A stretch of 64,000 nt of DNA, from positions 64,001-128,000 of IMG/VR virus record IMGVR_UViG_3300027976_000006; one strand, given 5' to 3'. The notes below the pieces were generated by a model. The model had not been told where the DNA came from and did not search any database. It was given only the letters and a program-made list of their open reading frames with translations. The translations under genes and the position numbers were made by a program. Positions 26,105 through 53,761 of this stretch are shown here, one piece after another (position 1 is the stretch's first letter; every line of letters begins with the position of its first letter). The stretch comes from a virus.

Positions 26105-28384
26105 GTGCAAATCGCTTCATTTAAAAAGGATTCTACTTCACAAAAGCGTAATGGTCTAACAGTCAAAAAGCGAAACGGCAAAGTGGTAAATTTTGATCAA
26201 GCTCGCATTTATACCGCATTACATCGATGTTTAGTAAGTGAGTTAAAGTATGATGAGGCTGAGGCGGTGCGCATTAGCAAAATGGTTGGTGAGCAGGTAT
26301 ACAATATCGTGGGTAGCGACAATAAGATAGTTGGTGTCGAAGAGATACAAAATTTAGTTGAAACTCAATTGATGGCTAATGGGCTGTACCTTGTGGCCAA
26401 ACAATATATTCTCTTTAGAGAAGTAAAGAGACAGCAACGAGAAAACGCACCATTACCCGAGGCAGTTGTTGCCGCATTTCAAGAGAATGACACTTATTTT
26501 AGTAATGAATTACAGAAGTTTCAAGCTTTGGACAAGTTTGCACGCTTTGTGCCAGAGCTAGGGCGGAGGGAGACTTGGCCTGAAACAGTAGACCGAGTTA
26601 ATCAATTTTTTCAAGCACATTGTAAGCGTGAAAATTATACTGTAACTGACGAAGAGTGGGAAAACCTTAAACAAGGTCTTTTGCGTCTAGAGTCTGCACC
26701 TTCCATGCGCTGCGTGCAGATGGCTGGACCTGCGCTAGAGAGATGCCATGTCGGTGTGTATAATTGCTCGTTCCAAATATTACAAGATACAACGGACATG
26801 GCTGAAGAACTGTATGTCTTAATGCAGGGCACAGGTGTTGGTTTTTCAGTGGAAGAAGAATTTAGCGTAGAAAAGTTTCCGCGCGTTAAGCGACAAAAGA
26901 AGCACAGTGAGCTTCTTACCTATGTGATCGAGGACAGCACTGAAGGTTGGTGTGATGCCTACAAGGCAGGGCTAGATGCGTGGTGGGCCGGTGAAGATAT
27001 TCATTTTGATTACAGCCGGATACGGGCGAAAGGCACGCCACTTAAGATTAAGGGGGGGAGGGCGTCGGGTCCTGGGCCATTAAAGGATTTACTGGAGTTT
27101 GCCAAGGCAAGAATTACGGCAAGGCAGGGGCGTTATCTCTCTAGTCTAGACCTACATGACATTAATTGTTTTGCCCATAGGATTGTGCGGATGGGAGGGG
27201 TGCGCAGAGCGAGTGGCATCTCGTTGTCAGATTTACAAGACCGAGAAATGCGTGATTGCAAGCAGCAAGGTTTTTGGACCACCAACGAGCAGCGCAATCA
27301 GGCTAACAATTCAGCCGTATATAACGAAAAACCGGATCAGCTGGTGTGGATGGAGGAGTGGTTATCTATAGCTAACTCGGGGACAGGAGAACGGGGTATT
27401 TTCAATAGGGGCGGGTTAAAGAATCAATTCCCTAAACGGCGTAAGCATCAGGGCCATTTTTTCGGGACCAACCCCTGCGGAGAGATTATTTTAAGGCACA
27501 AACAATTTTGTAACTTGTCTATTGCCGTTATTCGCACTACGGATTCGTACGAAGACATCGCACGAAAAGTAGAATTAGCTACAATTTGGGGGACATTGCA
27601 AGCCACTATGACTCGCTTTAATTACATAGGTGAAGAATGGAAAAAGAATAGCGAGGAAGAACGATTACTAGGAGTAGATTTGCTTGGTTTTCTTGATCAT
27701 CCGCTATTTCAGGATAACGCAAAAGCTGGTGTAATCCTGGCTAAATTGTTATGTTTAGTCAATGAAGTTAACGCCAAATGGTCGGCTCGTTTGGGTATTA
27801 ACATCTCTGCTGCTACTACATGTATTAAGCCGTCAGGGGATAGTAGCGTGTTCTTTAACACAGCAGCCGGGTTTAAAGGGCATCACGGAAAGTGGTACGT
27901 TAGACGCGTTAGAGCAAACACCACTAACCCTGTGGCACAGATGCTAAAAGATGAAGGCGTACCTTGCCTCGACGATTACGATGGCAGCGGTTTGGTATTG
28001 GAGTTTCCTATGCAGGCACCCGAAGGTGGTGTGTTGTTAGAAACGCAAACAGTTTTGAGCCAGCTAGAGAAATGGAAAACGTTTAAGCTGCATTGGACCG
28101 AGCACAATCCTAGTGTCACGATATATATTCGTCCTTCCGAGTGGCTGGACGCGGGCAAATGGGTTTACGATAACTGGGATATTGTTGGAGGTTTAAGCTT
28201 CCTGCCTTACGACGGGGGTATATACCATTTAGCCCCGTATGAAGCAATTTCGGAGGAGGAGTACGATCGCAGGGTTGCGGCTATGCCTACGATCAACTGG
28301 GCTAAGCTGATTCGTTACGAGAAATCAGATATGACTGATTTGCACCAGCAGACGGCCTGCACGGGTGGGGCTTGCGCTGTTTAA
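26105..28384 (+). CDS. nrdJ: class II (AdoCbl) ribonucleotide reductase with N-terminal ATP cone
   Basis: VKKRNG ATP cone, RRETWPETVDR, GTGVGFS, GGVRR, TNPCGEI, IKPSG, C-terminal CTGGAC. Confidence 0.92.
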   Translation: MQIASFKKDSTSQKRNGLTVKKRNGKVVNFDQARIYTALHRCLVSELKYDEAEAVRISKMVGEQVYNIVGSDNKIVGVEEIQNLVETQLMANGLYLVAKQYILFREVKRQQRENAPLPEAVVAAFQENDTYFSNELQKFQALDKFARFVPELGRRETWPETVDRVNQFFQAHCKRENYTVTDEEWENLKQGLLRLESAPSMRCVQMAGPALERCHVGVYNCSFQILQDTTDMAEELYVLMQGTGVGFSVEEEFSVEKFPRVKRQKKHSELLTYVIEDSTEGWCDAYKAGLDAWWAGEDIHFDYSRIRAKGTPLKIKGGRASGPGPLKDLLEFAKARITARQGRYLSSLDLHDINCFAHRIVRMGGVRRASGISLSDLQDREMRDCKQQGFWTTNEQRNQANNSAVYNEKPDQLVWMEEWLSIANSGTGERGIFNRGGLKNQFPKRRKHQGHFFGTNPCGEIILRHKQFCNLSIAVIRTTDSYEDIARKVELATIWGTLQATMTRFNYIGEEWKKNSEEERLLGVDLLGFLDHPLFQDNAKAGVILAKLLCLVNEVNAKWSARLGINISAATTCIKPSGDSSVFFNTAAGFKGHHGKWYVRRVRANTTNPVAQMLKDEGVPCLDDYDGSGLVLEFPMQAPEGGVLLETQTVLSQLEKWKTFKLHWTEHNPSVTIYIRPSEWLDAGKWVYDNWDIVGGLSFLPYDGGIYHLAPYEAISEEEYDRRVAAMPTINWAKLIRYEKSDMTDLHQQTACTGGACAV

Positions 28385-32077: not shown

Positions 32078-35000
32078 TTGGCTGGAGTTTTACAAATGCT
32101 TCCGTTTTCTTCTAATTTGTTTAATCCCGACGCTATGTCCTTGTTGAGTAACGTGCCACAACCGTTGCCAGAAGCTCCCGTGGTTCCATCGTTTCCAGCG
32201 GTTCCGTCGTTTCACGAATTTCATGATACTAATAAAGTTAGATCGCTCATTTACGACAAAGTGCTGAATGCGGCGCAGCAGGTGCAGCCTATCTCCAACG
32301 ATCGGCACACGCTGAGGTTATCTGATATAAATTATCGAGATGGTGACAAGTTTAGTAAGCAAGATCAAAAATCTTCCATTCTCAATGGGAGGACTCAAGG
32401 GCGTAGGCTAGAAGGAACTTGGGAGCTCTTGGATAATGCGACACAGCAAGTAATAGACTCCAAGAAGTCAGTGCTGGCGACTGTTCCGCACTTGACTGAT
32501 CGTGGCACGTTTATAAATAACGGTACCGAGTATATTTTACGAAATCAACAGCGGTTATTGCCAGGAGTTTATACCCGGGCAAGGAACAATGGCGAGATTG
32601 AATCGCATGTTAATGTTATGGCAGGAAAAGGCGTTTCACACCGTTATTTTTTAGACCCAGAAAAAGGTAGATTTAAACTCAAGGTAGGCCAAGCATCGGT
32701 AGGATTAACTCCTTTGTTGAAAGCTATGGGGGTTACCTCCGAGCAAGCCAAAGAAGCGTGGGGCACGGATCTATTTGCTGCCAACTATAACTCAGATGAC
32801 GCTTCCGACTATACACGGCTTAAAGGTATGTTTCTTTCGTCCAAAGAATTACAAGGGCCGGAAGATCAACAGAGACAAGCTTTGCTTGCTAAATTTTCTA
32901 AAATGGAAATGGACCCCGAAGTAACACGGCGCACGCTGGGAAAGCCTTATGCAAATATGTCATTGGACGCTGTGCTAGACATCACGAAGAAATTAATAAG
33001 TGTTAACAAAAATGAATCAGACCCTGATGACAGGGACGCGCTTCATTTTCAGCAGTTTGTCGGGCCAGAGGATTTGTTTTCAGAGCGAATCGCACGAGAT
33101 AAAGGGCAGGTACGCCGTAATTTACTATGGAAAATGTCAGGAAAAGGTAATTTAAGCTCAATGCCTTCGTCCGCATTAGACAAGCAGTTGAAAAGTGCAT
33201 TGCTTAGTAGTGGGTTAGGGCAGGCAATTGAAGAAATCAACCCGACAGACCTTTACGAAAAAACAATGTCGGTTACCCGCGTGGGCGAGGGCGGTATTTC
33301 TTCCATGGATTCTATCCCCAAAGAATCTCGAAATGTGCAATCAAGTATGCTGGGCTATATAGACCCTGTCCGTACTCCGGAATCTGGGCGTGTGGGTGTA
33401 GACACTTATTTGGCAAGAGGTTCTCGAAAAGGAAGCGATGGAAAGCTATACGCGCAGTTTCGAGATTTACGAACTGGTGAAATGGTGTATAAAACTCCAC
33501 AAGATGTGGCAAACTTAACTGTTGGATTTCCAGGAAGTCTAGAAGGGCCAGATAAGCGGGTGCCGGCAATGCGAGACGGCAAAATGCTTCATGTTCCTAA
33601 GGATAGTATTGATCTAGAATTACCTAATATGGAAGAGGCATTCAACCCTCTTTCTAATGTTATTCCGATGAAAAGCCAGGTAAAAGGGCAAAGATTAGTA
33701 ATGGCTTCTCGTATGACTACGCAAGCTTTACCTTTAGTATCGCCCGAAGCTCCTTTAGTACAGTCGGCAGTTCCCGGTACAAACGGGAAGCAAAGCTATG
33801 AAGAGTTGTATTCGCCAGGGATGGGAGCTTTGCGGGCGACACAAGCCGGTAAAGTTATGGCGGTTACTGACGAAGGGATTAAAGTGCGTAATGCGGACGG
33901 TACCGAGGAAACGCATGAGCTTTATAATAACTTCCCTTTTAATCGAAAAACTTTCTTTCAGCAGACTTCGGTAGTTAAGCCAGGCGACACTATCCAGCCA
34001 AATCAATTGTTGGCCAGTTCTAATTACACAGACAAGGTAGGAACGATGGCTTTAGGGGTAAACGCACGTACTGCTTATATCCCGTGGCAGGGCAAGAATT
34101 TTGAAGACGCGATTGTTATTTCAGATAGTTTTGCAAAGAGAACGGCTTCGTCGCATATGTACCAGCACGAGCTGGAGATTGACGACAAAACACAATTAGG
34201 TAAAAGGCAATTTATCCAAGCATTCCCGGCGACATTTAAAAAAGAAACATTAGCGACTATAGATGATCAAGGAATGGTTAAGCCAGGTACGGTAGTTAAT
34301 TTTGGTGATCCTTTGGTTCTTGGTATTACGCAAAAAGAAAATGCATATAACAAGGTGCACAAACAAGGGCAAAAGGGATTTAATAACGCAGCCGTACTTT
34401 GGGAACATCACGATAGTGGCGTTGTCACTGATGTGGTTATGGGTAAAAAAGGTCCGGTTGTTGTTGTTAAAGCTGAATCTCCAACGCAAGTCGGCGATAA
34501 ACTGTCCGGTCGCTACGGGGACAAAGGCGTCATTGCTGATATCATTCACGATAATGAAATGCCACAAGGGGCGGACGGTCAACCTTTTGAAGTGTTGCTT
34601 AATCCTCTTGGGATAATTAGTCGAACTAATCCTGCGCAAATGTCTGAATTGTTTTTAGGAAAAATAGCGGCTAAGCGGGGAACGCCGATTAAAGTAGATG
34701 ATTTTGATACTAAAAAAGACATGAGCCAATGGGTGTTGCAGGAATTAGCCAAAGAAGGTTTGTCTGACTTAGAAGATATTGTAGACCCATCTAAAGATCA
34801 AAAAATTAACAATGTGGCAACGGGTAGTCGTTTTTTTATGAAATTGCACCACACTGCTGAATCTAAAGGGCAGGGTAGAAGTGGCGGAGCTTACACTACG
34901 GAAGATGCCCCAGCTAAAGGCGGTACGGAAGGTTCTAAGCGCATAGGTTTGATGGATGCCAACGCATTGCTTTCTCACGGGGCTACGGACACGTTACAAG

Positions 35001-36562
35001 ACATTTTCACAATACGCAGGCAAAAAAATGACCAGTATTGGATGCAATTTATGGCTGGTTACGATCCAAAAATCACTACAGTTCCTTTTGCATATCAAAA
35101 ATTTGTGAATCAGCTGCGCTCGGCTGGCGTTAATGTGGTCAAGCAGGGAACGCAGACTCAGATTATGGCGATGACGGATAAGGACATTGACAGTTTAGCT
35201 GGAGACCGTGAGTTGACTAACGCAGATGGCGTAGAGTGGGGTAACCAACTAAAAGAGATCAACGGCGGACTATTCGACAAGGCTAAGACTGGAGGGCATG
35301 GCGGGACACGCTGGTCATTCATCAAACTTCATGAACCTTTGCCCAATCCTGTGATGGAAGAACCTATTAGGTCCATGCTTGGACTGACAAAGAAAAAGTT
35401 TGAAGGTGTAATAGCGGGTACAGAATCTTTAGACAAATACGGCAGCGGTACGGCAGCGCTGCAAAAAGCATTAGAAAATTTTAATGTAGATGCGGAAATT
35501 TCTAAAGCACGCGCAGTTATTTCCGCAGGTAGAGGCTCGCAGCGAGATGAAGCAATCCGTAAACTTAGTTATGCTAAAGCGGTGCAGAAGCTTGGGTTAC
35601 AGCCTAAGGACTATATGCTGACCAAGGTACCGGTTCTTCCTCCAATGTTTCGTCCTGTTAGTCTGATGAGTAATGGTATGCCTTTGGTTAACGATGCCAA
35701 CCACCTGTACAAAGAGTTGTTTGAGGCTAACCAGAATTTCAAGAGAATGCAGCAAGAAGTCGGAGAAGATGCTTCTGGGACAGAACGCCTCTCTACCTAC
35801 CAAGCGTTTAAAGCGGTGACTGGGCTGGGGGATCCTATTAGTGCAAAAAGCCAAGAAAAGAATGTTCGTGGTGCATTAAAAAATGTATTTGGAGAAAGCC
35901 CTAAGTTCGGGGTGGTGCAGCGTAAGTTGATTTCTTCCACCGTTGACAATGTAGGGCGTGCTGTTATTACCCCAAACCCATCTTTGGATATGGACTCTGT
36001 TGGTTTACCGGAGGATAAAGCATTTAAGGTTTACGAAAAGTTCGTCACCAGAAGATTGGTGCGACAAGGTATGTCGATGCTGCAGGCTCGTACCCAACTA
36101 GAAGACAAGACGCCAGTAGCCCGTAAGTTACTGGTTGAAGAAATGGAGCATAGGCCAGTGTATATTAGTCGTGCCCCTGTGTTGCATAAATTTGGGATTA
36201 TGGCAATGAAGCCAAGATTGACTAAAGGAAATACATTGCAGGTAAGCCCATTAATTGTAAAAGGGTTTGGAGCTGACTTTGACGGGGACACTATGAATTA
36301 TCATGTGCCCAGCACAGAAAAAGCTAGAAAAGAGGCTTTAGATCGTTTACTTCCCAGCCGTAACCTTTTTAGTATAGCTGACATGAAGTCGGTAATGCAC
36401 GCTCCTGCTAACGAATACATTGGCGGGTTGTTTATGGGGACAGACCCATCACGTAAATCCACGCGGCCTGTCCGGATTTTTCAAAACATACAGGATGCGA
36501 AGCGAGCACACGAAAGTGGAACTATTTCGGTCAATGACCCTGTCCGAATTTTAAATGGTTAG
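32078..36562 (+). CDS. DNA-directed RNA polymerase: beta fused to N-terminal half of beta'
   Basis: beta: GTFINNGTE, TPESGRVG, GDKLSGRYGDKG, LNPLG, MKLHH; beta': GGLFD, VPVLPPMFRP, RAPVLH, GADFDGD (36269-36289). Confidence 0.95.
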   Translation: MAGVLQMLPFSSNLFNPDAMSLLSNVPQPLPEAPVVPSFPAVPSFHEFHDTNKVRSLIYDKVLNAAQQVQPISNDRHTLRLSDINYRDGDKFSKQDQKSSILNGRTQGRRLEGTWELLDNATQQVIDSKKSVLATVPHLTDRGTFINNGTEYILRNQQRLLPGVYTRARNNGEIESHVNVMAGKGVSHRYFLDPEKGRFKLKVGQASVGLTPLLKAMGVTSEQAKEAWGTDLFAANYNSDDASDYTRLKGMFLSSKELQGPEDQQRQALLAKFSKMEMDPEVTRRTLGKPYANMSLDAVLDITKKLISVNKNESDPDDRDALHFQQFVGPEDLFSERIARDKGQVRRNLLWKMSGKGNLSSMPSSALDKQLKSALLSSGLGQAIEEINPTDLYEKTMSVTRVGEGGISSMDSIPKESRNVQSSMLGYIDPVRTPESGRVGVDTYLARGSRKGSDGKLYAQFRDLRTGEMVYKTPQDVANLTVGFPGSLEGPDKRVPAMRDGKMLHVPKDSIDLELPNMEEAFNPLSNVIPMKSQVKGQRLVMASRMTTQALPLVSPEAPLVQSAVPGTNGKQSYEELYSPGMGALRATQAGKVMAVTDEGIKVRNADGTEETHELYNNFPFNRKTFFQQTSVVKPGDTIQPNQLLASSNYTDKVGTMALGVNARTAYIPWQGKNFEDAIVISDSFAKRTASSHMYQHELEIDDKTQLGKRQFIQAFPATFKKETLATIDDQGMVKPGTVVNFGDPLVLGITQKENAYNKVHKQGQKGFNNAAVLWEHHDSGVVTDVVMGKKGPVVVVKAESPTQVGDKLSGRYGDKGVIADIIHDNEMPQGADGQPFEVLLNPLGIISRTNPAQMSELFLGKIAAKRGTPIKVDDFDTKKDMSQWVLQELAKEGLSDLEDIVDPSKDQKINNVATGSRFFMKLHHTAESKGQGRSGGAYTTEDAPAKGGTEGSKRIGLMDANALLSHGATDTLQDIFTIRRQKNDQYWMQFMAGYDPKITTVPFAYQKFVNQLRSAGVNVVKQGTQTQIMAMTDKDIDSLAGDRELTNADGVEWGNQLKEINGGLFDKAKTGGHGGTRWSFIKLHEPLPNPVMEEPIRSMLGLTKKKFEGVIAGTESLDKYGSGTAALQKALENFNVDAEISKARAVISAGRGSQRDEAIRKLSYAKAVQKLGLQPKDYMLTKVPVLPPMFRPVSLMSNGMPLVNDANHLYKELFEANQNFKRMQQEVGEDASGTERLSTYQAFKAVTGLGDPISAKSQEKNVRGALKNVFGESPKFGVVQRKLISSTVDNVGRAVITPNPSLDMDSVGLPEDKAFKVYEKFVTRRLVRQGMSMLQARTQLEDKTPVARKLLVEEMEHRPVYISRAPVLHKFGIMAMKPRLTKGNTLQVSPLIVKGFGADFDGDTMNYHVPSTEKARKEALDRLLPSRNLFSIADMKSVMHAPANEYIGGLFMGTDPSRKSTRPVRIFQNIQDAKRAHESGTISVNDPVRILNG

Positions 36563-36636
36563 GAAACTAAGTAATATATCTCTATCGTAGATTTTAATTA
36601 GGGTTTAGAATCACAAGGTGAGATGACACAAGGAGT

Positions 36637-37389
36637 ATGATTATGGCAGTTAATTTTGAATTGTTACGAATGGCACGACAAAGCATAGGAAAAAAACACT
36701 TATCTAAATATGCATTCGTTGCAGCGGGTGACCCGGCTATGGGTGCTCCCCCGATGGACCCTTCTATGGGCGGTGGCGGTGCTCCCCCGATGGACCCTTA
36801 TATGGGCGGTGGTGGTGCTCCCCCGATGGACCCTTCTATGGGCGGTGGCGGTGCTCCCCCGATGGACCCTTATATGGGCGGTGGCGGTGCTCCCCCGATG
36901 GACCCTTATATGGGTGGTGGCGGTGCTCCGCCCCCAGCCGACCCGATGGCTGCAATAATGCCGATGATTCAGCAAGCGGTACAGCAGGCAATGTCCGCCA
37001 ACGGCGGAGGACAAGCACAAGCAACGCCGTCTGGGCTCAGACCTAAAATCGATATCAATGTCGAAATTGTACAAATTAAGAAAATGCTTGCCAAAATTAT
37101 TGACTCACTTGGTATTCACGTGCCTGTGTCTGATATGGTGGTAACACCTGAAGATTTAAATCAAATTGCGCAAGGTGGCCCTGGCTATGCGGCGGCAACG
37201 CCCGACCAGCCGGCGGGCGGGGGTGGGCTTGGGCAGATTCAGCCTGTTTCTCCCATGAAAGCGGCAGAGGCCTGGGAAAGTGGTGCAGCTTTCAGTTTAC
37301 CTTCTGATTATTACCCAGCGCAAACAGCGCATAAAAGTAAAAGTGTAGCGGAGTTGGCTACTGCTCTTTTAATGCGAAAATCTATGTAA
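36637..37389 (+). CDS. Pro/Gly/Met-rich virion protein
   Basis: KYA then (APPMDP[S/Y]MGGGG)x5; Cys-free. Confidence 0.7.
   Translation: MIMAVNFELLRMARQSIGKKHLSKYAFVAAGDPAMGAPPMDPSMGGGGAPPMDPYMGGGGAPPMDPSMGGGGAPPMDPYMGGGGAPPMDPYMGGGGAPPPADPMAAIMPMIQQAVQQAMSANGGGQAQATPSGLRPKIDINVEIVQIKKMLAKIIDSLGIHVPVSDMVVTPEDLNQIAQGGPGYAAATPDQPAGGGGLGQIQPVSPMKAAEAWESGAAFSLPSDYYPAQTAHKSKSVAELATALLMRKSM
36742..36929 (+). repeat. 36-bp coding tandem repeat x5
   Basis: GGTGCTCCCCCGATGGACCCTT(C/A)TATGGGCGGTGGC units, no spacers. Confidence 0.95.
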
Positions 37390-37401
37390 GGAGTTTATGT
37401 T

Positions 37402-37626
37402 ATGTTCATTGTGGAGGTTCTTACTACCGTAGGGAAACCTCCACTTAGGCTTCCTGCTTCTCAAGTTGTAGTGCGTATGCCGGATGGCACTCCAATTAGC
37501 GTGGCGGCTTTGTTCGGCGGGGTTACTAGCGTTTTGGTATCGCATTGTGAAGACTCTAGCTTCAATGACAATTTACGTAAGTTAGGCATTAACGAAACCG
37601 TTATTTCTACAAAGGTACAAGTGTAA
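37402..37626 (+). CDS. hypothetical protein
   Basis: 74 aa, AAGGAG RBS. Confidence 0.65.
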   Translation: MFIVEVLTTVGKPPLRLPASQVVVRMPDGTPISVAALFGGVTSVLVSHCEDSSFNDNLRKLGINETVISTKVQV

Positions 37627-37627
37627 T

Positions 37628-38203
37628 ATGGACAATTCTTTGCGCTCTTCCGACATATATTACAGAGATAGGCAACCAATAGTTGTGCCTAAGCCTGTGC
37701 CGATGCCGACTTATCGGCAATCTTCTAACGAAAGTTTTTCCAATAATAAATATTATGCGGAGATGTCAACACCGGCTGGCACAGACGACATAGTTAAAAT
37801 GCAACTGCGACCAAAAAAAGAATCGGAATTGGAGTTAGCGGATAACTGGGACGGTATAGCAACTTTTCAGAATGAATTTAAAGAAGGTGCCACTTCTATC
37901 GTGGTAAAATCAACTGAAGCTGTAATCCTGCAGTTACAAGTTGCTGTGGATATGGCAGTCGGGCGTAACGAGTTGACGAGAGAGCAGGTAGACTCTATAA
38001 CTTTTGTAGCAACAGCTCGTGCCCCGATTTTTGCGGTACCAAAAGTGCCTCCGATTAAAGAAACAACTGTTTCTCCCAAGAGCACACCCGAGGCAGCCGA
38101 TATCCTAAACGCCCCGACTAAACCGGGCAATAAAAAGGCAAAGCGGGGCATTACCCTGAAAGACATTGCAGCTGTGTTTGATGTCGACGATAGCGACGCT
38201 TAA
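37628..38203 (+). CDS. hypothetical protein
   Basis: 191 aa, coupled to previous gene. Confidence 0.6.
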   Translation: MDNSLRSSDIYYRDRQPIVVPKPVPMPTYRQSSNESFSNNKYYAEMSTPAGTDDIVKMQLRPKKESELELADNWDGIATFQNEFKEGATSIVVKSTEAVILQLQVAVDMAVGRNELTREQVDSITFVATARAPIFAVPKVPPIKETTVSPKSTPEAADILNAPTKPGNKKAKRGITLKDIAAVFDVDDSDA

Positions 38204-38217
38204 AATCCAGATTTTAA
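38200..38217. promoter_or_regulatory. dispersed 18-bp palindrome copy upstream of beta'(C)
   Basis: TTAAAATCCAGATTTTAA. Confidence 0.72.
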
Positions 38218-38244
38218 ATAATTTGTTCAGGGCAAAACTATTTT

Positions 38245-41200
38245 ATGTTGAACACAACCGTTGGGCAATTGTTGATTAATGATGTACTCCCCGAAGAGAT
38301 GAGAGACTCGCACCGTGTGTTAGATAAGAAGGGGTTGCAATCTTTATTACAACAAGTGGCGCAACAATACCCAGAACGCTATCGAGATATTTCTTTTCAG
38401 CTAAGCCAGCTAGGTCAAAGCATGGCGCAGCAGCAGGGTGGTATGTCGTTTGGTCTGCGACATCTGCAAGTAAGTAAAGCGGCTATGGCATCTCGGCAGA
38501 AAGTTAAAGTTTCACTTGCTAATATACTAGCGGACGACACATTGACGGACCGCCAACGAAATGACCAGATTATTCTTGCTGTTGGCAAGGAAAGTCCCGA
38601 GCAACAAAAGCAAGTTCTGGCAGAAGCATTAAAAGACAAAAACCCGCTTGGGCTGCAGGTGATGTCGGGAACCCGCGGTAAGTCGATGAACCTAACTAGT
38701 CTGCTGGGTTCGGATATGTTGTATTCTGACCAGCGTGACGAAGTGATTCCGATTCCTGTATTGCACAGTTATAGCGAGGGGTTGTCACCTGCGGAATATT
38801 GGGCTGGAACTTACGGGGCGCGCAAAGGGATTATGGCAACTAAGTTTGCCACACAAGAAGCTGGTTTTTTTAACAAGCAGCTAAACCAAACTAGTCATCG
38901 TCTTGTGGTTACGGGAGAGGATGCCGAGGAGGACAAAGACGCACCTATTCGTGGCTTGGTGGTAGACACCGAAGATGCGGATAACGAAGGTGCTTTATTG
39001 GCCCGTGACGCAGGTCCTTACGCACGCAATACCCCACTTACCCCGAAAATACTAAACCATTTACAACGGCTAGGGCACCCTAGAATTTTGGTACGCTCCC
39101 CGCTAGTTGGTGGTTCTCCCGAGGGTGGTGTTTATTCTAGAGATGTAGGTATTAGGGAAACAGGAAGGTTGCCGGGTATTGGGGAGCAAGTTGGGTTGCA
39201 GGCTGCACACGCTCTAAGTGAACCGATCAGCCAAGGGCAACTATCTGCAAAGCATTCTGGTGGGGTTGCGGGGCAAGAAAAAGCTGTAAGCGGGTTTCAA
39301 TATTTAAACCAATTAGTGCAGGTTCCTAAGAAAATGCAAGGCGGGGCAGCCCATTCCCTTACAGATGGCACGGTGCAGCGGATTGAGGCAGCTCCAGCGG
39401 GTGGTAGCTATGTGACCATCGGGGATAAAAGACATTATGTAGGAGTAGGGTATGAGCTTAAAGTTAAAAAAGGAGACGAAGTAGAAGCTGGTGATGTAAT
39501 TAGTACGGGGATTCCTAACCCCGCAACTATTACAGAGCATAAAGGAATTGGGGAAGGTCGGCGATATTTCGTTAACGAATTTCGTAAGGCTATGGGTGAC
39601 AGCGGAATGTTCGGACATCGGCGTAATGTTGAAGTGTTGGCAAGGGGGCTTATCAACCACGTAAGGTTGACGGAAGAAACTGACGATAACGTTCCTGATG
39701 ATATTGTACCTTATTCAACGCTTGAGCACACTTATAAGCCGCGGGCAGACTATCAGCGATTAACGCCCAAGCGTGCGTTAGGTCAATATCTTGAACGACC
39801 TGTGCTGCATTACACCATAGGCACCAAGATTCAACCCTCGATGCTTAAGAATTTTGAAGAATTTAAAGTTAATGAAATTCCAGTGCACAAGAACCCTCCT
39901 CCATTTGTGCCACAGATGGTACGTGGGTTGTATCAAATGCAGCACGACCCCGATTGGATGACACAAATGTATGGGTCTGGGCTGAAGAAAAGTTTTTTAG
40001 ACTCGGTTACGCATGGTGCAGTTAGCGAAGAGCGAGGTACAAGCTTTGTGCCGAGTTTGGCCTTGGGGCTTAATTTTGGTGAAGGCAGTGATCGTGCCGT
40101 AATAAAGCCGAAGTCTGGGGCAACTCCTCCTTTTTTTGGTGGCAGTTTTACTCCGGGTCAAACTAAATTTGCAGCAGATACTCCGAATGTCTCTGCCCCG
40201 CCTTCTGCTTCTAAACCGCCTGCTGTTTCTACCCCACCTAGAACTTTAGCTCCGGGCACAAACATTATGCCGACAGCACCGACACCTGTAAAAGCACCTA
40301 CACCTGCTCCGACATACTCGAACTCTAACGCAAATCAATTTAGTAATTTAATGCATAGTAATTCTCCCTTTGCTCAACAAACCGGGCAGGCGTTGAATCA
40401 AATGAATCCATTACACGCAATGATGATGTTGGGGGGGATGGCTAATAATAATAATAATAATAATATGTCTAGTAATATAATGAATGGGTTTGGCGGGCAA
40501 AATAATGGTGGAATGTTTAATATGTTTAATGGGGGGCAAAATAATAACGGGCAAAATAGCGGAGGAATGTTCAATAATATGTTTAATATGCCCAGCTCGT
40601 ACGATTCGGAATCTAACATGCCTGCTGAGCCTGTAACTGAAAGCCCATATGTCTCGGCTCAAGGTCCAGTAAGTAATACTGCCTCTGGTGCTGCGTATGA
40701 CACCGCAGCAAAGGGGGTAGGTGCGGGATATTCAGCAGTAGCAAATAAATTTTCAAGTCCTCCTATCTCATCTAATATTATGCCTCCGCCGTTGCCTAGA
40801 ACACCTCCTCCGATACCCGCTAAGCTTCCTCCGATACCCGGAATGACTCCTCCTCCGATACCAGGAATGACTCCTCTTCCGCTGCCTGGGGTTAAACCTC
40901 TGGCTGGTATGCTCAGTAAAGCCACTTCAATAGGTGGTACAGGTTTAAAGTTAGTAAGTAAAGCGGCACTGCCACTATCTGTGGCTCTGGACACAATAAA
41001 CGTCGGGCAAGACATATACAACAAAGGTTGGGATAATACAACTAACGACGCAGCACAAAAATGGCGAGATATACTTTCGGCCAAGGATGGGCTACATACC
41101 TTGTATCAAGCTCCATTACAAGTTCTAAACCCTGTGGCTAATGCACAATTAATTGCTGGCGGGGCAACACAGACTGCCCAGATGGTAGGAGAAAAAGCAC

Positions 41201-41865
41201 AAGAAGGGCTAACCCATGCGTATGACAAAGTAACGGGTACGGATACTCGTTCTCGTAATTTTGCAGAGGACAAGACACAAGTTAAAAACATGGAGTTAGA
41301 AAATCAAAGAGATTTAGAAGGACAAAGAGCACTAAATAAGCCGAATCCAAATCTACCCCCAGATAGGTTAGCTTTAAATACGCAAGAAAATGCCCGTCTT
41401 GATGCTAAAATACAAGATTCTAAAACGAGGCAAGGAAATACGGCGGATGAAACTGCAAACTGGAGGCTAGGCCAGCAAAATTGGTTTGGCAGTGGTGGCC
41501 ACAAATTTAGGGATGCTATGCAAAATTCGATTACTAATTCAGCTGCCGAATTGCAGGGTTTAAATAACGGAGGCACACTAGATGCAGGGCAGCAGGCTAG
41601 GAAAGAACAGTTAGAAAACGGACAAGCACAGCGTAAACAAATGATCGGTACTTACGATCGGGAGGGCGGGGCATCTGGTAAAGGTTTGTTTAGTACAGAT
41701 ATGCGCAACCGGGTTAGCAGTCTTAAGGAAAATATTGTGCAGGTCGGTTCACAACTTAGAGACCCCAACCTTCCTCCGGACCAAAAAGCAAAATTAGAGG
41801 CACAATTAAAAAATAATAATGAAATGTTAGAAGAATATCGAGGATGGGCAGAAAGTTCTAAATAA
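38245..41865 (+). CDS. RNA polymerase beta' C-terminal half (aa 1-~625) plus ~560 aa non-RNAP tail
   Basis: TTVGQ, SGTRG, EGLSPAEY..GARKG bridge helix, GEQVG..ALSEPISQ..KHSGG trigger loop, NVEVLAR. Confidence 0.92.
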   Translation: MLNTTVGQLLINDVLPEEMRDSHRVLDKKGLQSLLQQVAQQYPERYRDISFQLSQLGQSMAQQQGGMSFGLRHLQVSKAAMASRQKVKVSLANILADDTLTDRQRNDQIILAVGKESPEQQKQVLAEALKDKNPLGLQVMSGTRGKSMNLTSLLGSDMLYSDQRDEVIPIPVLHSYSEGLSPAEYWAGTYGARKGIMATKFATQEAGFFNKQLNQTSHRLVVTGEDAEEDKDAPIRGLVVDTEDADNEGALLARDAGPYARNTPLTPKILNHLQRLGHPRILVRSPLVGGSPEGGVYSRDVGIRETGRLPGIGEQVGLQAAHALSEPISQGQLSAKHSGGVAGQEKAVSGFQYLNQLVQVPKKMQGGAAHSLTDGTVQRIEAAPAGGSYVTIGDKRHYVGVGYELKVKKGDEVEAGDVISTGIPNPATITEHKGIGEGRRYFVNEFRKAMGDSGMFGHRRNVEVLARGLINHVRLTEETDDNVPDDIVPYSTLEHTYKPRADYQRLTPKRALGQYLERPVLHYTIGTKIQPSMLKNFEEFKVNEIPVHKNPPPFVPQMVRGLYQMQHDPDWMTQMYGSGLKKSFLDSVTHGAVSEERGTSFVPSLALGLNFGEGSDRAVIKPKSGATPPFFGGSFTPGQTKFAADTPNVSAPPSASKPPAVSTPPRTLAPGTNIMPTAPTPVKAPTPAPTYSNSNANQFSNLMHSNSPFAQQTGQALNQMNPLHAMMMLGGMANNNNNNNMSSNIMNGFGGQNNGGMFNMFNGGQNNNGQNSGGMFNNMFNMPSSYDSESNMPAEPVTESPYVSAQGPVSNTASGAAYDTAAKGVGAGYSAVANKFSSPPISSNIMPPPLPRTPPPIPAKLPPIPGMTPPPIPGMTPLPLPGVKPLAGMLSKATSIGGTGLKLVSKAALPLSVALDTINVGQDIYNKGWDNTTNDAAQKWRDILSAKDGLHTLYQAPLQVLNPVANAQLIAGGATQTAQMVGEKAQEGLTHAYDKVTGTDTRSRNFAEDKTQVKNMELENQRDLEGQRALNKPNPNLPPDRLALNTQENARLDAKIQDSKTRQGNTADETANWRLGQQNWFGSGGHKFRDAMQNSITNSAAELQGLNNGGTLDAGQQARKEQLENGQAQRKQMIGTYDREGGASGKGLFSTDMRNRVSSLKENIVQVGSQLRDPNLPPDQKAKLEAQLKNNNEMLEEYRGWAESSK

Positions 41866-42245: not shown

Positions 42246-44720
42246 ATGGAAATGCCTAAGCAGAGTAATTCAATAAAGAACGCCAGCATAGGCGGTAAAG
42301 GCGGGGAGACGGAATTTGCCCAGGCTTTTTCCAGCTTAGCCTATGCATACCTAAAAGACAAGGCACCACGACTTCTTGACTATATGTTGGGTTTTCAGCT
42401 AATTGATCGCAATGAAGATAATACTAAAGCAGTTGGTGTTTTTGGTTTCCAGCTCGACAAACAGTGGCTTTATGCCCCTGTATTTTTTTTAAACGGCGAT
42501 TTAAAAGGGCATGAGTTGCTATACGTAAAAAACAATGATTCATTTGTTCCGATGAAAGAAAACTGGATTAACTATCTGATGAGTCGAAAGCCTCATATTT
42601 TAGGCGAACCTTCAGTAAACAAATTGCAAGAGCTTGGTGGGATTGCTCCTGACATTAATTCGTTGTCCTTGTCACCTACCGGCAACAAGAACGCAAGTGA
42701 CATATATTGGCTTCGTCCAGTGCTACCCATGCTGGCAGCTTTTAAAGTAAAACTTGCTAACTCCTTGTATCGAGGAGCGGGCAATCGGCAGCTTGATCAA
42801 AAGGCGATTGTTCGATCGCCATTTACGGCTGCATTAGCCAAGACTGCTTCAAATCTGGATTTTAACCAAGTTCTGCCTAAAAGTCTCTTACTGCTTGAAG
42901 CTGCCTATGACTTAGCCGAGCGGTACCCTGCCATCAAAAAAGCTACTTGTGATTTTTACGGAGCTAACTGTTTTTCACGCTGGGGGAAAGAATTTAGAAG
43001 CAATACGATCAAGCAAGCTAGCAGCATTCTTTATTCACCTACCACGGTCACACTTACATCTACTAATTTGTTAAGCGGGGCAGCACAATCGAGGCCTACC
43101 ATCGATCACATTAAAGAAGGCAAGCTACAAGTCGTTACTTCCGTAACTTCGGATCAAGGCGGGCTGGATACTAAAGACCAAGAGAACTTATTGCAGGGCA
43201 AGATAGTTATTAAGGATAGGCGAGAAGATGCAGAAGTAAGTAAAGTCTATGCAACAGAAAACGAGATTAGACTTTTCAATCCTTCTGAAACCGAACTGTA
43301 CTCTGTACTGGAGAAGTCTGGAGAATTTAGCAAAATGCTGGTGGTGTTAAACGGGATTAGCAGCCGCGGCGCTGAATATATGACCACAGTAATACGCATA
43401 GACGATAAGGATAGTCAGAACAAAAGTTGGTTAAACGCAGACAATACGGCAGTTTTTGCTACGCAAGTTTCCATGGACAAAAATGATTGGAAAGATTGGT
43501 TCGATGGTTTATCCTCCGAGACTGACTTAGCCGAGGAGGCTGAATATATTGCGATAAACGCCACCCATTCCGCCACTGCTCCTTTTCATGTACTCACCGA
43601 TATGGGAGATGGGCAATATAAAGTAGATTTTCGCATAAGTAAAGATTATCTATCTTCTCGTGACTCGCTGCTGCCACAGGTACAATCGCGCTACGCTAGC
43701 GGGGGCGACAACCGCACTCGCGGTGTGACTCTAATTGTGGGTAAACAGGATAAACCAGGGCTTAGACTTCGACCCCTGTCCAGCGAACTGTGCGTGCCTG
43801 CATCTTTTAAATTTATTAAACTGTCTGATGGTTCTTCCTCTGGCTTTTTTGGTAGTTGCGGTTGTTCTCCTTTGGACGAAGATTCAAACCCAATTAAGTT
43901 AGGTAGCTTAAGCGACATTCAACGATTGCTGGTTGAAAAAACAGCCAGGCTTAAAGTGTTCAATAACGGAACTGACGTCTACCTGGATTCGGTTATTGGC
44001 TCTGTGCAGTTAAGTAAAAAGGCAGCATTATGCCAGCTGGTCGCCACACATGGCCTACGCGAAAAAGCAGCCATGGACATGCTGAAAAAAGCGGAGCAGA
44101 AAGGACATGCTGTTTATCGTGTTCGATATGCCCCAGGTTATGGGGCCGAAAAGCAAGCTGCTCCAAATACCAGTGTGCTAGCTGGTGGCCCTACTTTCCC
44201 GCTTGATACTGAATCAAATAACGATGGTAGTGAGACTTATGGCCCTAGCACTTCTGTCCGAACCCAGACTAGTACGGAAAAAACTTCGCCCATACCTTCA
44301 TTAAGCGGGCGTAACACAAATAGGTCCAAGTGGGACAACTGGCAAAACTTCGAGGCTAAGGATTTTAAGCAAAATCTGCAGGCGGCACAAGTCGCGGGCA
44401 AGGAAGGGCAGAAAGAAGTGTTTGATGTTTCGATGATGGCTGGTATGTTAAAAACAGTGCGACAAGATTCAATTGTAGACCGCCACTTAGGTGATTTAAT
44501 GTCGGCGTTAGATTCGCTAGGTCGTTTGATAATGAATTTCTACTGGCACCAGGAAGAATTTGAAGATCGGTATGGCAAAAGTGATCTTCCGGAGTTGGAA
44601 GATAGTTTGCGTAACGCTTTTGAATCTCTTGGGGATATCACACTTTTCTTAAAAGAAAAAACCATAGAATCGTCGGCGGATAAAGGTGATATTAACTTAG
44701 ATGAAGTTTCAAGGAACTAA
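42246..44720 (+). CDS. large putative inner-head/core protein
   Basis: 824 aa, many KxA sites, start of head module. Confidence 0.55.
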   Translation: MEMPKQSNSIKNASIGGKGGETEFAQAFSSLAYAYLKDKAPRLLDYMLGFQLIDRNEDNTKAVGVFGFQLDKQWLYAPVFFLNGDLKGHELLYVKNNDSFVPMKENWINYLMSRKPHILGEPSVNKLQELGGIAPDINSLSLSPTGNKNASDIYWLRPVLPMLAAFKVKLANSLYRGAGNRQLDQKAIVRSPFTAALAKTASNLDFNQVLPKSLLLLEAAYDLAERYPAIKKATCDFYGANCFSRWGKEFRSNTIKQASSILYSPTTVTLTSTNLLSGAAQSRPTIDHIKEGKLQVVTSVTSDQGGLDTKDQENLLQGKIVIKDRREDAEVSKVYATENEIRLFNPSETELYSVLEKSGEFSKMLVVLNGISSRGAEYMTTVIRIDDKDSQNKSWLNADNTAVFATQVSMDKNDWKDWFDGLSSETDLAEEAEYIAINATHSATAPFHVLTDMGDGQYKVDFRISKDYLSSRDSLLPQVQSRYASGGDNRTRGVTLIVGKQDKPGLRLRPLSSELCVPASFKFIKLSDGSSSGFFGSCGCSPLDEDSNPIKLGSLSDIQRLLVEKTARLKVFNNGTDVYLDSVIGSVQLSKKAALCQLVATHGLREKAAMDMLKKAEQKGHAVYRVRYAPGYGAEKQAAPNTSVLAGGPTFPLDTESNNDGSETYGPSTSVRTQTSTEKTSPIPSLSGRNTNRSKWDNWQNFEAKDFKQNLQAAQVAGKEGQKEVFDVSMMAGMLKTVRQDSIVDRHLGDLMSALDSLGRLIMNFYWHQEEFEDRYGKSDLPELEDSLRNAFESLGDITLFLKEKTIESSADKGDINLDEVSRN

Positions 44721-48910: not shown

Positions 48911-50389
48911 ATGGCGTTAATTAAACTTGTTTCTCCTGCTGGTTGGGACTTTGATCAGCAAATTGTTTCTCCGATTAAAGTGAGTAGCCGTGGATTGATT
49001 GGTAACGATCGTCAAGAGTTTTTAAAACGGGCTAGTCATTCTTTTTTGGACCAGTTAGATAATGTTAAATTTGCCTCAGACGAAGTTCCTGTGCATTTAA
49101 TCGCATTAGGTGCAAGTGAAGCTTATGGCCCCAATAGAAACGGTGATGGGTTTAAAGAAGCCACTTGTCGCGAGCATCATGACACCTTTGTTAAATTTGC
49201 CAAATTTTTTCGCAATCATAAAAACAAGGCCGAGCGAGGCGATCCTTTCTATGGTGTGGTTAAAGCTTCTGCTTATAACGAAGATATGCGACGGGTAGAA
49301 TTGCTTTGTGCTTTAAACGCAAGCAAAGCAGCCGCGGATCGGAATGGTGGTTTTATTGCAGATACCGAGTTAGAAAAGATTGCGAAAGGCGAAGACATAG
49401 GCGTAAGCATGGCGTGCCGTGTTTCCCATGACGTTTGTTCTTTTTGCAAGCACGCAGCTAAAACACGAGACGAATACTGTACAAGAGAAAAGTGTGCAGC
49501 GGGTGGGTGCAAGGAAAATCTCACTAAGCTAGTAAAAGTCGGTAATGATGTGCATCATTTGCATGTCGACAATCCCAACCCAGTTTGGTTTGACATCAGC
49601 CGAGTTTTTCGCCCCGCGGATCGTATTGCTTATGGCACCCGTGCAGATTACCTAACCAAAGCAGCCGCAGATTCCGGCATATTCGAACTGCAGGATTACA
49701 TCAAATTAGCTTCGGCTTCTACTGCTCCTCTGGCTGTCATTTTGTACCAAGCGGGGCACCACGGTTTATGGTCGGAAAAAAATACTGCCCAAGTTAAATT
49801 AGGATATGGGCTTGCTGCTCTTGAAAAATTTGCAGAAATGCTGGATGCTAATACTTACCGAGCCGTAGTAACCTCTGCTTTTCCTATAGAAAGGCTGGCA
49901 AAATTAGGTTCGGCACACTGTGATAAGCAGTTAGCCGCGTTGGCAGATAATAAAATATTTTTAACATTGTATGATTATGCACGATTGGCAGGACAAGAAA
50001 AGTACATGAAAGCTGCAGCCGCGATACTCCCCGAAATATATACGCTAATGGCCGAGGATGAATCCTTGCCTTTAGCAATTGAGCGCGGGGTCGGCTCAAT
50101 TGGCGATAAAACAGCTAATGAAAGTGCTAGGGCGTTTGCTGCCACGTTGACGGCGAGTCATTCGTTTCACCGAGTGGCAGCGGAAGACCGAAACCTTTTG
50201 AGCTGTATACGTGGGCAGGCTGCTCCTACGATCTGGCAAAAGGCAGCTGCATATAATTTGGAAGGCGAAAGCCTAGCCAAGGAGTATGCAATGTATAAGC
50301 TAGCAGGGTTATGGCGATTGGCTGCACTAGACAACGACTTTACTTCAACAGTCAAGTTAAGTCTTAAGCAGAATAGAATATTTAACTAG
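48911..50389 (+). CDS. prohead maturation protease (HK97/assemblin fold) with KxA-rich C-terminal region
   Basis: NRNGDGF, FFRNH (His), GVSMAC (Ser), CSFC insert, FDISRV..PAD; upstream of scaffold and capsid genes. Confidence 0.7.
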   Translation: MALIKLVSPAGWDFDQQIVSPIKVSSRGLIGNDRQEFLKRASHSFLDQLDNVKFASDEVPVHLIALGASEAYGPNRNGDGFKEATCREHHDTFVKFAKFFRNHKNKAERGDPFYGVVKASAYNEDMRRVELLCALNASKAAADRNGGFIADTELEKIAKGEDIGVSMACRVSHDVCSFCKHAAKTRDEYCTREKCAAGGCKENLTKLVKVGNDVHHLHVDNPNPVWFDISRVFRPADRIAYGTRADYLTKAAADSGIFELQDYIKLASASTAPLAVILYQAGHHGLWSEKNTAQVKLGYGLAALEKFAEMLDANTYRAVVTSAFPIERLAKLGSAHCDKQLAALADNKIFLTLYDYARLAGQEKYMKAAAAILPEIYTLMAEDESLPLAIERGVGSIGDKTANESARAFAATLTASHSFHRVAAEDRNLLSCIRGQAAPTIWQKAAAYNLEGESLAKEYAMYKLAGLWRLAALDNDFTSTVKLSLKQNRIFN

Positions 50390-52751: not shown

Positions 52752-52813
52752 TTTTTAAATATTAACTCAATCTAACCACAAGTTTGATTGATACCACAAG
52801 GAGGTTTTTACGC

Positions 52814-53761
52814 ATGTCTAATTCCAATACTATGACTCAAGAAGAAAGCAAACTTCTTAGTCAGACAATTTTTGAAAAGTTGGCTTCTAGGGACTCTGGT
52901 CTTGAAAAGCAAGCCGTTGACGCCGTTAACGACTTTACTAGAACTAAGATGCGCGAAGATGGATTTTATCGTAGGATTATGCCGCCGATTCCATTAAGCA
53001 ACGATGATCTTGATCGCCAAGTCGATACGGACAAACCTGTAAAGATTGTGGACAAGGAACCTGATAGTCCAGCGGCTATCTCAATTCCTTTTGCCACGCT
53101 TCCCACTAACCTGTACATTCGTGGTGACAGGTACAAAGTTACTTTTGACCGCATCGTGACCCCTAAATTCACGAAAGATGTGGACGAACTTCGTACTTGG
53201 CACATGGACATCCGCCAAATTTTGTCGGACAATGCCATTAAGGATATGCTAGCGGAAGAAGATGGAAAATTTATTTCTGCGGTCAACACCGCTCTAGTTG
53301 GTGCAGAAACAATTGTTCCTACCTCTGGCGTAATCCAGTACAAGCAGCTTGGTGGTGGCGTCACCCGTGGCAACTTGTGGGATAGCTTCAAGATTATGCC
53401 AAGCACGCCTTCTAATCTGGAAGTTCACTCTGTCCTGCTTAATAACATCACGATTAAAGAAGTTGCAAAACTTAATCGTACTGAGATGGGCGGCGACCTT
53501 AGCGAAGAGATTATGCGTAATGGTTGGACTTACAGTGAATTCATGGGAGTTCAGTGGATCATCACAATTAAGAAGGGACTTGTCCCGACTAACACGATGT
53601 ATCATTTCGCAGACCCTAAATTTATTGGCAAGAGCTATATGATAGAAGACACTACGATGTATATCCGTCGTGAAGCGTATTTTATCGAATTTTTTGCCTA
53701 TGAAACTTTGGGTGGCACCATTGGGCATACCTCCGGTCTTGCTCGGGTTGACTTTACCTAA
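52814..53761 (+). CDS. major capsid protein (HK97 fold)
   Basis: AAGGAGG RBS; short leader ending EKQA, then FTRTKMREDGFYRRIMP..EEDGKF; strong terminator follows. Confidence 0.75.
   Translation: MSNSNTMTQEESKLLSQTIFEKLASRDSGLEKQAVDAVNDFTRTKMREDGFYRRIMPPIPLSNDDLDRQVDTDKPVKIVDKEPDSPAAISIPFATLPTNLYIRGDRYKVTFDRIVTPKFTKDVDELRTWHMDIRQILSDNAIKDMLAEEDGKFISAVNTALVGAETIVPTSGVIQYKQLGGGVTRGNLWDSFKIMPSTPSNLEVHSVLLNNITIKEVAKLNRTEMGGDLSEEIMRNGWTYSEFMGVQWIITIKKGLVPTNTMYHFADPKFIGKSYMIEDTTMYIRREAYFIEFFAYETLGGTIGHTSGLARVDFT

Follow-up and report, generated by a model that had tools for sequence, protein, structure and literature searches.

A stretch of 64,000 nucleotides, referred to here as the window (bases 64001-128000 of the 156,975-bp viral contig IMGVR_UViG_3300027976_000006 from IMG/VR, rated 76% complete and belonging to an uncultured freshwater phage), carries two genes for an RNA polymerase (RNAP). 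In the product of the first gene, chain 1, a complete beta subunit is joined to the N-terminal half of beta-prime, and the C-terminal half of beta-prime is encoded by a separate gene further downstream (chain 2). Both zinc sites of beta-prime have been lost and neither chain contains a cysteine (Cys). This fused-and-split, Cys-free layout is widespread, has cultured members, among them the phages Arash and D69, and is essentially undescribed in the searchable literature. The enzyme is probably the only RNAP of the phage, packaged together with a sigma factor, entering the cell with the DNA and transcribing the first phage genes without the host polymerase. The architecture, catalytic elements, loss of zinc sites and Cys, conservation and sigma factor described below are those of this clade; presence in the virion is taken from the distant cultured phage Arash. 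Positions are those of the window unless a contig position is given, and the genes and elements of the RNAP region are all on the + strand.

Chain 1 is encoded by an open reading frame (ORF) at 32078-36562 that predicts 1494 aa from a TTG at 32078 or 1488 aa from an ATG at 32096. Relatives and a database copy (P0123, MLPFSS...) share the start MLP(F/L)SS at the ATG, so the TTG is probably unused as a start and the gene is assigned to 32096..36562. A Pro-rich N-terminal extension of about 55 aa, which has no bacterial counterpart, precedes the beta-homologous part (aa 60-1041, 32255..35198). Pfam domains are found in the order Rpb2_3, Rpb2_6 and Rpb2_7 (aa 382-981; E 7e-50 for Rpb2_6), followed by Rpb1_1 and Rpb1_2 (aa 1169-1421), and the NCBIfam rpoB and rpoC models are also matched. 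In phmmer searches, solved bacterial beta chains align to aa 60-246 and 371-1041 (E 2e-65), up to their residue 1163/1183 and thus almost to their own C-terminus, and bacterial beta-prime chains cover aa 1123 to 1486-1489. The beta-prime part begins at GGLFD (aa 1063, nt 35264), which places the junction at about 35160-35264 and leaves about 20 residues joining the two subunits. The catalytic Mg-binding loop reads GADFDGD (36269..36289), with Gly replacing the usual Asn and all three Asp present, and chain 1 runs for about 90 aa beyond it.

Chain 2 is encoded at 38245..41865, begins MLNTTVGQ and consists of the C-terminal half of beta-prime (aa 1-~620) and a variable extension (aa ~621-1206). 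It contains Pfam Rpb1_5, and aa 2-492 align at residue level with residues 659-1168 of a Streptomyces beta-prime chain (8k60_D), which locates the bridge helix at 38797..38883 and a trigger-loop segment with its conserved His (KHSGGVAG) at 39181..39273. Chain 1 accounts for positions 146-533 of the NCBIfam bacterial rpoC model and aa 2-485 of chain 2 for positions 548-1056, indicating that the two genes form one beta-prime and that nothing has been lost at the cut. An AlphaFold2 model of aa 1-640 of chain 2, built from a 20-row alignment, was not used, with a mean predicted local distance difference test (pLDDT) value of 58 and values below 50 for the bridge helix and the segments of the second zinc site and trigger loop. 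Bacterial beta and beta-prime give the best matches (E 1e-65 and 1e-48), well ahead of phiKZ-type PHROGs. Judged by their sequences, chains 1 and 2 are a bacterial-type two-barrel RNAP core rebuilt as two chains.

A sequence-only reading of the window had described a single chain of 1494 aa passing from beta into beta-prime, with a junction near 35140, a GADFDGD loop with Gly for Asn, and a second gene, three genes downstream and starting at TTVGQ, that holds the bridge helix and trigger loop. Domain mapping agrees with this description: the measured junction lies close by, the catalytic loop is found as described, the ORF of chain 2 holds both elements, and ORFs starting at 36637, 37402 and 37628 separate the two genes. 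Its characterization of the enzyme as a distinct, bacterial-like RNAP is also borne out by the bacterial best matches and by a layout unlike those of Helicobacter, cyanobacteria and phiKZ.

The 2700 aa of chains 1 and 2 include no Cys, where about 37 would be expected from the mean content of the contig proteome (1.38%, using a greedy ORF set over the whole contig; Poisson P ~7e-17). At the first zinc site, residue 180 of E. coli beta-prime aligns with residue 1123 of chain 1, and about 82 Cys-free residues lie between the end of beta and this point, so that about 100 N-terminal residues of beta-prime have been deleted. In bacterial beta-prime the N-terminal zinc ribbon is located within the deleted stretch, and the Cys4 ribbon is absent from chain 1 in both translation and alignment. 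The remnant reads GGLFD...GGHGG...EPLPNPVM, and the entire junction with the deleted site (QIMAMTDKD ... GGLFDKAKTGGHGG ... EPLPNPVM, 35159..35356) is without Cys and is kept in Arash and D69. The second site, at 38914..39150 (GEDAEED ... VRSPLVG ... GVYSRDVG), was defined by alignments with Arash, D69 and the solved chain. Its four Cys are kept in Arash Gp216 and the D69 orthologue (DC...LTC...GVCxKC), where they match the Cys of the solved Streptomyces chain and are the only ones present (exactly four in each protein); the corresponding positions of chain 2 (DA...LVG...GVYSRDV) are A, G, Y and V. The second site is also replaced in the divergent clade members L011 and L015, and the family consensus is GVYARDVG. 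The absence of Cys over 2700 aa, the replacement of the N-terminal zinc domain and the VRSPLVG/GVYSRDVG form of the second site had all been proposed from the sequence alone, and the counts and alignments lead to the same conclusions, with the ribbon stretch gone and no Cys left in its place.

Across the family, 85 of 92 full-length insert-free fused chains have no Cys and none has more than 3, and Cys is also missing from 108 of the 120 clusters of the C-terminal half of beta-prime (beta-prime-C). Near-total absence over more than 200 clusters points to strong purifying selection rather than composition or drift. The Cys-rich members are those that carry inteins or LAGLIDADG endonucleases.

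The uninterrupted fused gene was recovered repeatedly. The whole fused ORF is covered at 0 differences by Logan contigs from each of runs X1, X2 and X3, and run X4, which carries no flag as a possible source of this DNA, contributes an independent contig across the junction (35007-35665); these runs belong to four studies of freshwater and estuary metagenomes. Intact copies of the gene were also seen in IMG/VR (five contigs, 70-87% identity), in a JGI contig (58%) and in one contig of a metagenome-assembled genome (MAG; 93%). In a collection of 5.8 billion proteins, PF00562 and PF00623 occur together in proteins of ~1480 aa that form >120 clusters at 90% identity, and in an exhaustive search with aa 560-1494 of chain 1, all of the best 150 representatives at 50% identity span the junction at E <1e-235, so that more than 150 clusters at this level have the fusion. 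The same fusion and the same split are present in the cultured phages Arash, D69, D181 and D148. The fusion is therefore not an assembly error, the fault that the sequence-only reading had named as refuting it, and run-level contigs show no sign of one. The sequencing runs listed for this DNA included none of RNA. The contig has a single set of RNAP genes, as does a relative whose 204.8-kb genome is complete and bears terminal repeats. No phage record was matched when 20 kb were searched by megablast.

The catalytic Asn position varies within the family. Among the 120 fused-chain proteins listed, 75 have NADFDGD and 36 have GADFDGD, and Arash and D69 have AADYDGD, indicating that Gly is the variant of a sub-clade.

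Several further features of the family were noted. Inteins and LAGLIDADG homing endonucleases (PF14528, PF14890, PF03161 and PF05203) have often inserted into the fused gene and into that of beta-prime-C; carriers include P0021, P0054, P0055, P0086 and P0105, and representatives reach 3350 aa. The inserts hold nearly all of the Cys found in the family and the exteins are Cys-free, so splicing presumably proceeds with Ser or Thr at the +1 position. In P0255, P0259 and P0266 (~1820-1835 aa), a single matched stretch starts near residue 890. The ~330 additional N-terminal residues of such members have no signs of an intein and may represent a different N-terminal module. The 93%-identical copy of the phage region (L016; JBDNHI010000047.1, a 79-kb contig) is binned in a MAG of the Gemmataceae (Planctomycetota), which may be a weak hint of the host or a binning artefact.

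The sequence-only reading had found no alpha or sigma in the window. This holds for the window, where neither gene is recognised, but not for the phage, as a sigma homologue is present elsewhere in the contig, at contig positions 138829-139569. The protein, of 246 aa and without Cys, matches Arash Gp10 (E 4e-15), Sigma70_r3 (2e-5), sigma NCBIfam models (1e-6, below curated cut-offs) and PHROG 351 (1e-9). Sigma70_r2 gave no match in the contig or in two near-complete relatives, and the homologue surfaced only through Arash Gp10. Each of the four relatives searched has a conserved copy that is also Cys-free, and its gene in the contig is directly upstream of baseplate genes. The AlphaFold model (pLDDT 62) matches almost exclusively sigma chains of holoenzymes, with probability 1.00 and low template-modelling scores. 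A complex model of this protein with the N-terminal half of beta-prime from chain 1 (aa 1040-1494) scored 0.69, against 0.00 for the best of 3 controls; among 80 solved complexes 58 attained this mark, and among 110 mismatched pairs only 2 did. Contact agreement between runs was at least 31%, the pLDDT of the partner was at least 68, and the modelled interface was at aa 1194-1242, the clamp-helix region of beta-prime (35657..35801). Complexes of sigma with beta-prime have already been solved, so the result indicates likeness to the canonical interface and is not proof of binding. From these profile matches and models, the Cys-free sigma-70-family protein is likely to be the promoter-specificity subunit.

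Comparison with Arash places a portal homologue at 1834-3756, a major capsid protein homologue at 52784-53761, Gp222-like and Gp236-like genes at 48911-50389 and 58423-61230, and a terminase gene at contig positions 23158-25113. The RNAP genes are located between the portal and major capsid homologues, on the same strand. Searches of 20 neighbouring ORFs against PHROGs and Pfam yielded only a ribonucleotide reductase (RNR) gene and a weak structural match. The RNR gene (26105-28384; PHROG 367, E 8e-134; 15 Cys) is part of the co-oriented block that leads from the portal gene to those of the RNAP, which means that not all of this block is structural.

Evidence for packaging comes from Arash, for which virion proteomics detected Gp206, the fused chain, more than any other protein (3516 spectra, 128 unique peptides; PMC10585845). 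The virions also contained Gp216 (40 unique peptides), the sigma factor Gp10 (24) and the helicase Gp217 (38), and 11 peptides were assigned to the 764 aa of RNR alpha (PMC10585845). Expressed as unique peptides per 100 residues, Gp206, Gp216 and Gp10 are at the level of the capsid and portal proteins, ~5x that of RNR alpha. Packaging, as claimed in the sequence-only reading, is thereby supported indirectly, through the Arash proteome, the position of the genes between portal and capsid, and a Cys-free signature like that of N4. In N4 (NC_008720, L023 34523-47523), the ejected virion RNAP (vRNAP) gp50 (3500 aa), gp51 and gp52 have 0 Cys in 4294 aa, and the mean content of eleven other N4 proteins is 1.27%. 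Virion-detected proteins of Arash are similarly poor in Cys (Gp4, 0/1097; Gp229, 2/2548; Gp10, 0/234; Gp217, 0/472), and TerL, RNR alpha and a kinase of this phage have 1.4-2.5%. The virion RNAP subunits of phiKZ (Gp80/149/178/180) contain 0.61% Cys and the non-virion paralogues (Gp55/68/71/73/74) 1.13%. The Cys content of ejected proteins goes unmentioned in two reviews of ejection proteins and in two papers on N4 ejection.

In the most probable account, the RNAP genes would be expressed together with the head genes, and the enzyme and its sigma factor would be packed into the capsid and delivered with the DNA. Once delivered, the enzyme would transcribe the earliest phage genes with no need of the host polymerase, and newly made enzyme would serve the remaining cycle. 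Covalent linkage of beta to beta-prime may stand in for the assembly platform that the alpha dimer provides. Removal of the zinc sites and Cys could, in line with the adaptation to unfolded ejection proposed in the sequence-only reading, be an adaptation to life in the virion, where the enzyme would be exposed for long to oxidising conditions and pass through the tail in a non-native state, and it would let the chains refold with no metal to insert and no wrong disulfides to form. The steps of this account that we infer are ejection, early transcription that does not depend on the host, and the cause of the Cys loss. A bolder version, in which the two chains and sigma constitute a self-sufficient, metal-site-free holoenzyme that needs neither alpha nor omega, is stored in the capsid, is threaded in non-native form through a contractile tail and refolds unaided, with removal of Cys and zinc as the enabling step, is offered tentatively and is somewhat doubtful. 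If it were true, near-zero Cys would be a sequence signature of ejected proteins in many phages though not all (N4 yes, phiKZ weakly).

A number of observations weigh against this account. Because the co-oriented block includes RNR, position alone is no proof of late or structural expression. No match to PF01000 (alpha) was obtained in the contig at E up to 1, although with a single Pfam model and a contig that is 76% complete a divergent alpha could escape detection, and no promoter motif common to the 67 intergenic regions emerged when they were searched by k-mers, the words returned being only AT-rich or T-run. The phiKZ virion RNAP, with 16 Cys, is depleted only about twofold, so Cys-freedom is not a general need of packaged RNAPs, and capsid and tail proteins are Cys-free too, so that the signature marks virion proteins in general and not ejection. 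Arash is only ~30% identical to this phage, making the inference of packaging reasonable but indirect. Metabolic enzymes, too, were present in the Arash particle preparation, and carry-over of abundant enzymes is a possibility that the authors of that study concede (PMC10585845).

These points would fit a transcriptase that the phage makes for itself and does not package, with early genes, those of the polymerase among them, transcribed by the host RNAP as in T7, and with Cys and zinc lost for another reason, such as resistance to oxidative or thiol-reactive conditions in the host, or drift once the zinc sites had gone. The RNR and other enzymes in the Arash particles, the RNR gene in the same block and the Cys retained by the phiKZ virion RNAP all favour it. 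We nevertheless consider it unlikely, since the Arash RNAP chains and sigma were detected at the peptide density of capsid and portal and not at that of RNR, the RNAP genes are located between portal and capsid with the sigma gene among baseplate genes, and the near-total absence of Cys implies strong selection and mirrors the ejected proteins of N4. Packaging would also be compatible with chain 1 being a polyprotein that secures 1:1 packaging and is cut by a prohead protease near the junction, and perhaps at the N-terminal extension. Processing of many internal proteins by head proteases is established for large phages (T4 and phiKZ), and the ~55-aa extension without a bacterial counterpart would suit such processing. 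However, the short conserved junction joins the C-terminus of beta to the N-terminus of beta-prime, which are neighbours in bacterial RNAP and are the termini joined in natural Helicobacter-type fusions, and no protease gene was recognised in the window by PHROG and Pfam scans of the neighbouring and intervening ORFs; cleavage is accordingly given still less weight.

The substitution of the catalytic Asn by Gly in a sub-clade and the loss of both zinc sites could suggest that the chains are catalytically dead relics reused as internal structural proteins. This is very improbable given that the DFDGD Asp, bridge helix, trigger-loop His and beta barrel motifs are conserved at 55-96% family identity, that most relatives keep NADFDGD, and that the phage has a dedicated sigma factor but no second RNAP. 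An artefact of assembly or gene calling, for which the metagenomic origin of the contig is the sole argument found, has a negligible chance of explaining the fusion or the split, as independent contigs from the four runs and four studies agree with one another and with hundreds of clusters, the complete genomes of cultured phages carry the fusion, and every close relative has the three conserved ORFs between the two genes. The packaged, sigma-equipped RNAP thus stays the preferred explanation.

The three ORFs between the RNAP genes predict proteins of 250 aa (36637..37389; 0 Cys, 9% Met), 74 aa (37402..37626) and 191 aa (37628..38203; 0 Cys). Each is found in 5/5 close relatives, the second as a 74-aa orthologue and the third as orthologues of 189-236 aa. 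None has a Pfam or PHROG match. They were entertained as substitutes for alpha and omega and dropped, there being no family match and a variable number of ORFs among relatives: 3 here, 4 in L015, 2 in D69 and 9, mostly on the opposite strand, in Arash. The first ORF includes four to five tandem GGGGAPPMDP(S/Y)M repeats in 36-nt units (~36733-36912). Metagenome contigs break only at this repeat, and the variant in the estuary run X2 is 108 nt (three units) shorter, indicating that the repeat number is polymorphic in nature.

Beta-prime-C proteins of the family range from 620 to 1310 aa, and the orthologues of chain 2 from 641 to 1310 aa. In chain 2, the extension of ~590 aa is made up of a Pro/Asn/Gly/Met-rich linker and a C-terminal domain. 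An alignment of six clade members and the composition (Pro 16%, Asn 11%, Ser, Ala and Gly ~10% each) define the linker as a poorly conserved, low-complexity segment at 40105..41004. The C-terminal domain (GWDNTTNDAAQ ... YRGWAESSK, 41005..41865) is kept in 4 of 6 members, truncated in L013 and absent from L011 and L015. The extension has no Pfam or PHROG match and no paralogue in the contig, and its Atlas feature scores of <=0.84 are at chance level.

The beta-prime-C gene is followed by an unrelated 824-aa ORF (42246-44720, 6 Cys). In Arash the corresponding place is taken by gp217 (L001 23067-24485), a gene for a Cys-free helicase that matches the RNAP chains in virion abundance; a homologue of gp217 was not detected in the contig (tblastn, E 1e-4). 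Two more large Cys-free ORFs are present, at 14758-17829 (1023 aa, 14 Cys expected) and at contig positions 130250-135442 (1730 aa, 24 expected). Neither has a family match. The 1730-aa ORF is upstream of the sigma and baseplate genes and may encode a tape-measure or other internal virion protein.

Both zinc sites of beta-prime are near-universal in cellular RNAPs. A large and clearly functional family in which the first is deleted, the second replaced and Cys avoided altogether shows that the catalytic core requires neither site. The enzyme would be a natural minimal form of the bacterial type, built from two chains and sigma, no alpha having been detected. Freshwater, estuarine and other metagenomes contain the family in abundance, and cultured relatives (Arash on Salmonella, D69 on Vibrio) put it within reach of ordinary experiments. 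If avoidance of Cys does go with delivery through the tail, the injected proteins of uncultured phages could easily be picked out by it.

The closest known systems are those of Arash (Gp206+Gp216, Gp10; OQ632216) and the Vibrio phages D69, D181 and D148, which have the same fusion and the same split before the TTxG motif. A tblastn search with the fused chain against Arash and D69 covered 95-97% of it in one place, with both ends aligned. Arash and D69 also share the deletion of the first zinc ribbon, the conserved junction, a fused chain with only 1-2 Cys, a location next to head genes and a sigma-70-type factor, and Arash has homologous portal, capsid and terminase proteins. They differ in being ~30% identical, in retaining the Cys of the second site, in the AADYDGD motif, in a beta-prime-C of 606-609 aa without the extension, and in having a Cys-free helicase of their own beside beta-prime-C and a second sigma gene. 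In the Arash paper the chains are simply labelled beta and beta-prime, and nothing is said of a fusion, a split, zinc or cysteine (PMC10585845).

The mReC phages are likewise large, tailed and uncultured, and their beta and beta-prime, which are of the bacterial type, form branches separate from cellular RNAPs. Their genes, selected by Weinheimer and Aylward (2020) on NADxDGD and >=800 aa, encode separate, adjacent beta (~1010 or 1365 aa) and beta-prime (~905 or 1005 aa) subunits, often in two sets per contig, and the words split, virion, intein and cysteine are absent from the text of that paper (PMC7481178). With beta and beta-prime in separate genes, the mReC RNAPs differ from the fused-and-split enzyme. 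The mReC major capsid proteins match PF07068, whereas the homologue here has no match to PF07068 at E 0.01. The IMG sample numbers of five relatives are not in the mReC supplements (PMC7481178), and overlap is not shown.

Like the RNAP described here, the enzymes of phiKZ and AR9 are phage multisubunit RNAPs without alpha, one of them virion-packaged, with beta-prime split after the catalytic barrel. In phiKZ, however, there are two paralogous enzymes, beta is also split, giving two or three chains, a gp68-type fifth subunit is present and sigma-70 is not, and the vRNAP keeps 16 Cys. Similarity to the phiKZ type is also far weaker (E 1e-25 among PHROGs, where the nearest family reaches 1e-72), and the contig lacks the phiKZ-type layout, having one RNAP set with beta entire. 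A review of jumbo phages covers phiKZ-type enzymes only (PMC7824862). The gp50 protein of N4 resembles the present enzyme as a virion-packaged, ejected transcriptase that, like its co-ejected partners, is Cys-free, but is a single-subunit, T7-like polymerase of 3500 aa with an unrelated fold.

Among cellular RNAPs, those of Helicobacter and Wolbachia and of cyanobacteria keep both zinc sites and require alpha and omega. In Helicobacter and Wolbachia, beta is joined head-to-tail to beta-prime as in chain 1, but the whole of beta-prime is fused; NF007172 was matched far below its cut-off. The cyanobacterial and plastid gamma and beta-double-prime subunits have beta-prime cut in the same inter-domain region as in the phage. 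Here the cut is ~20 residues upstream of the cyanobacterial boundary, with chain 1 ending at gamma position 550/619 and residue 23 of chain 2 corresponding to position 4 of rpoC2.

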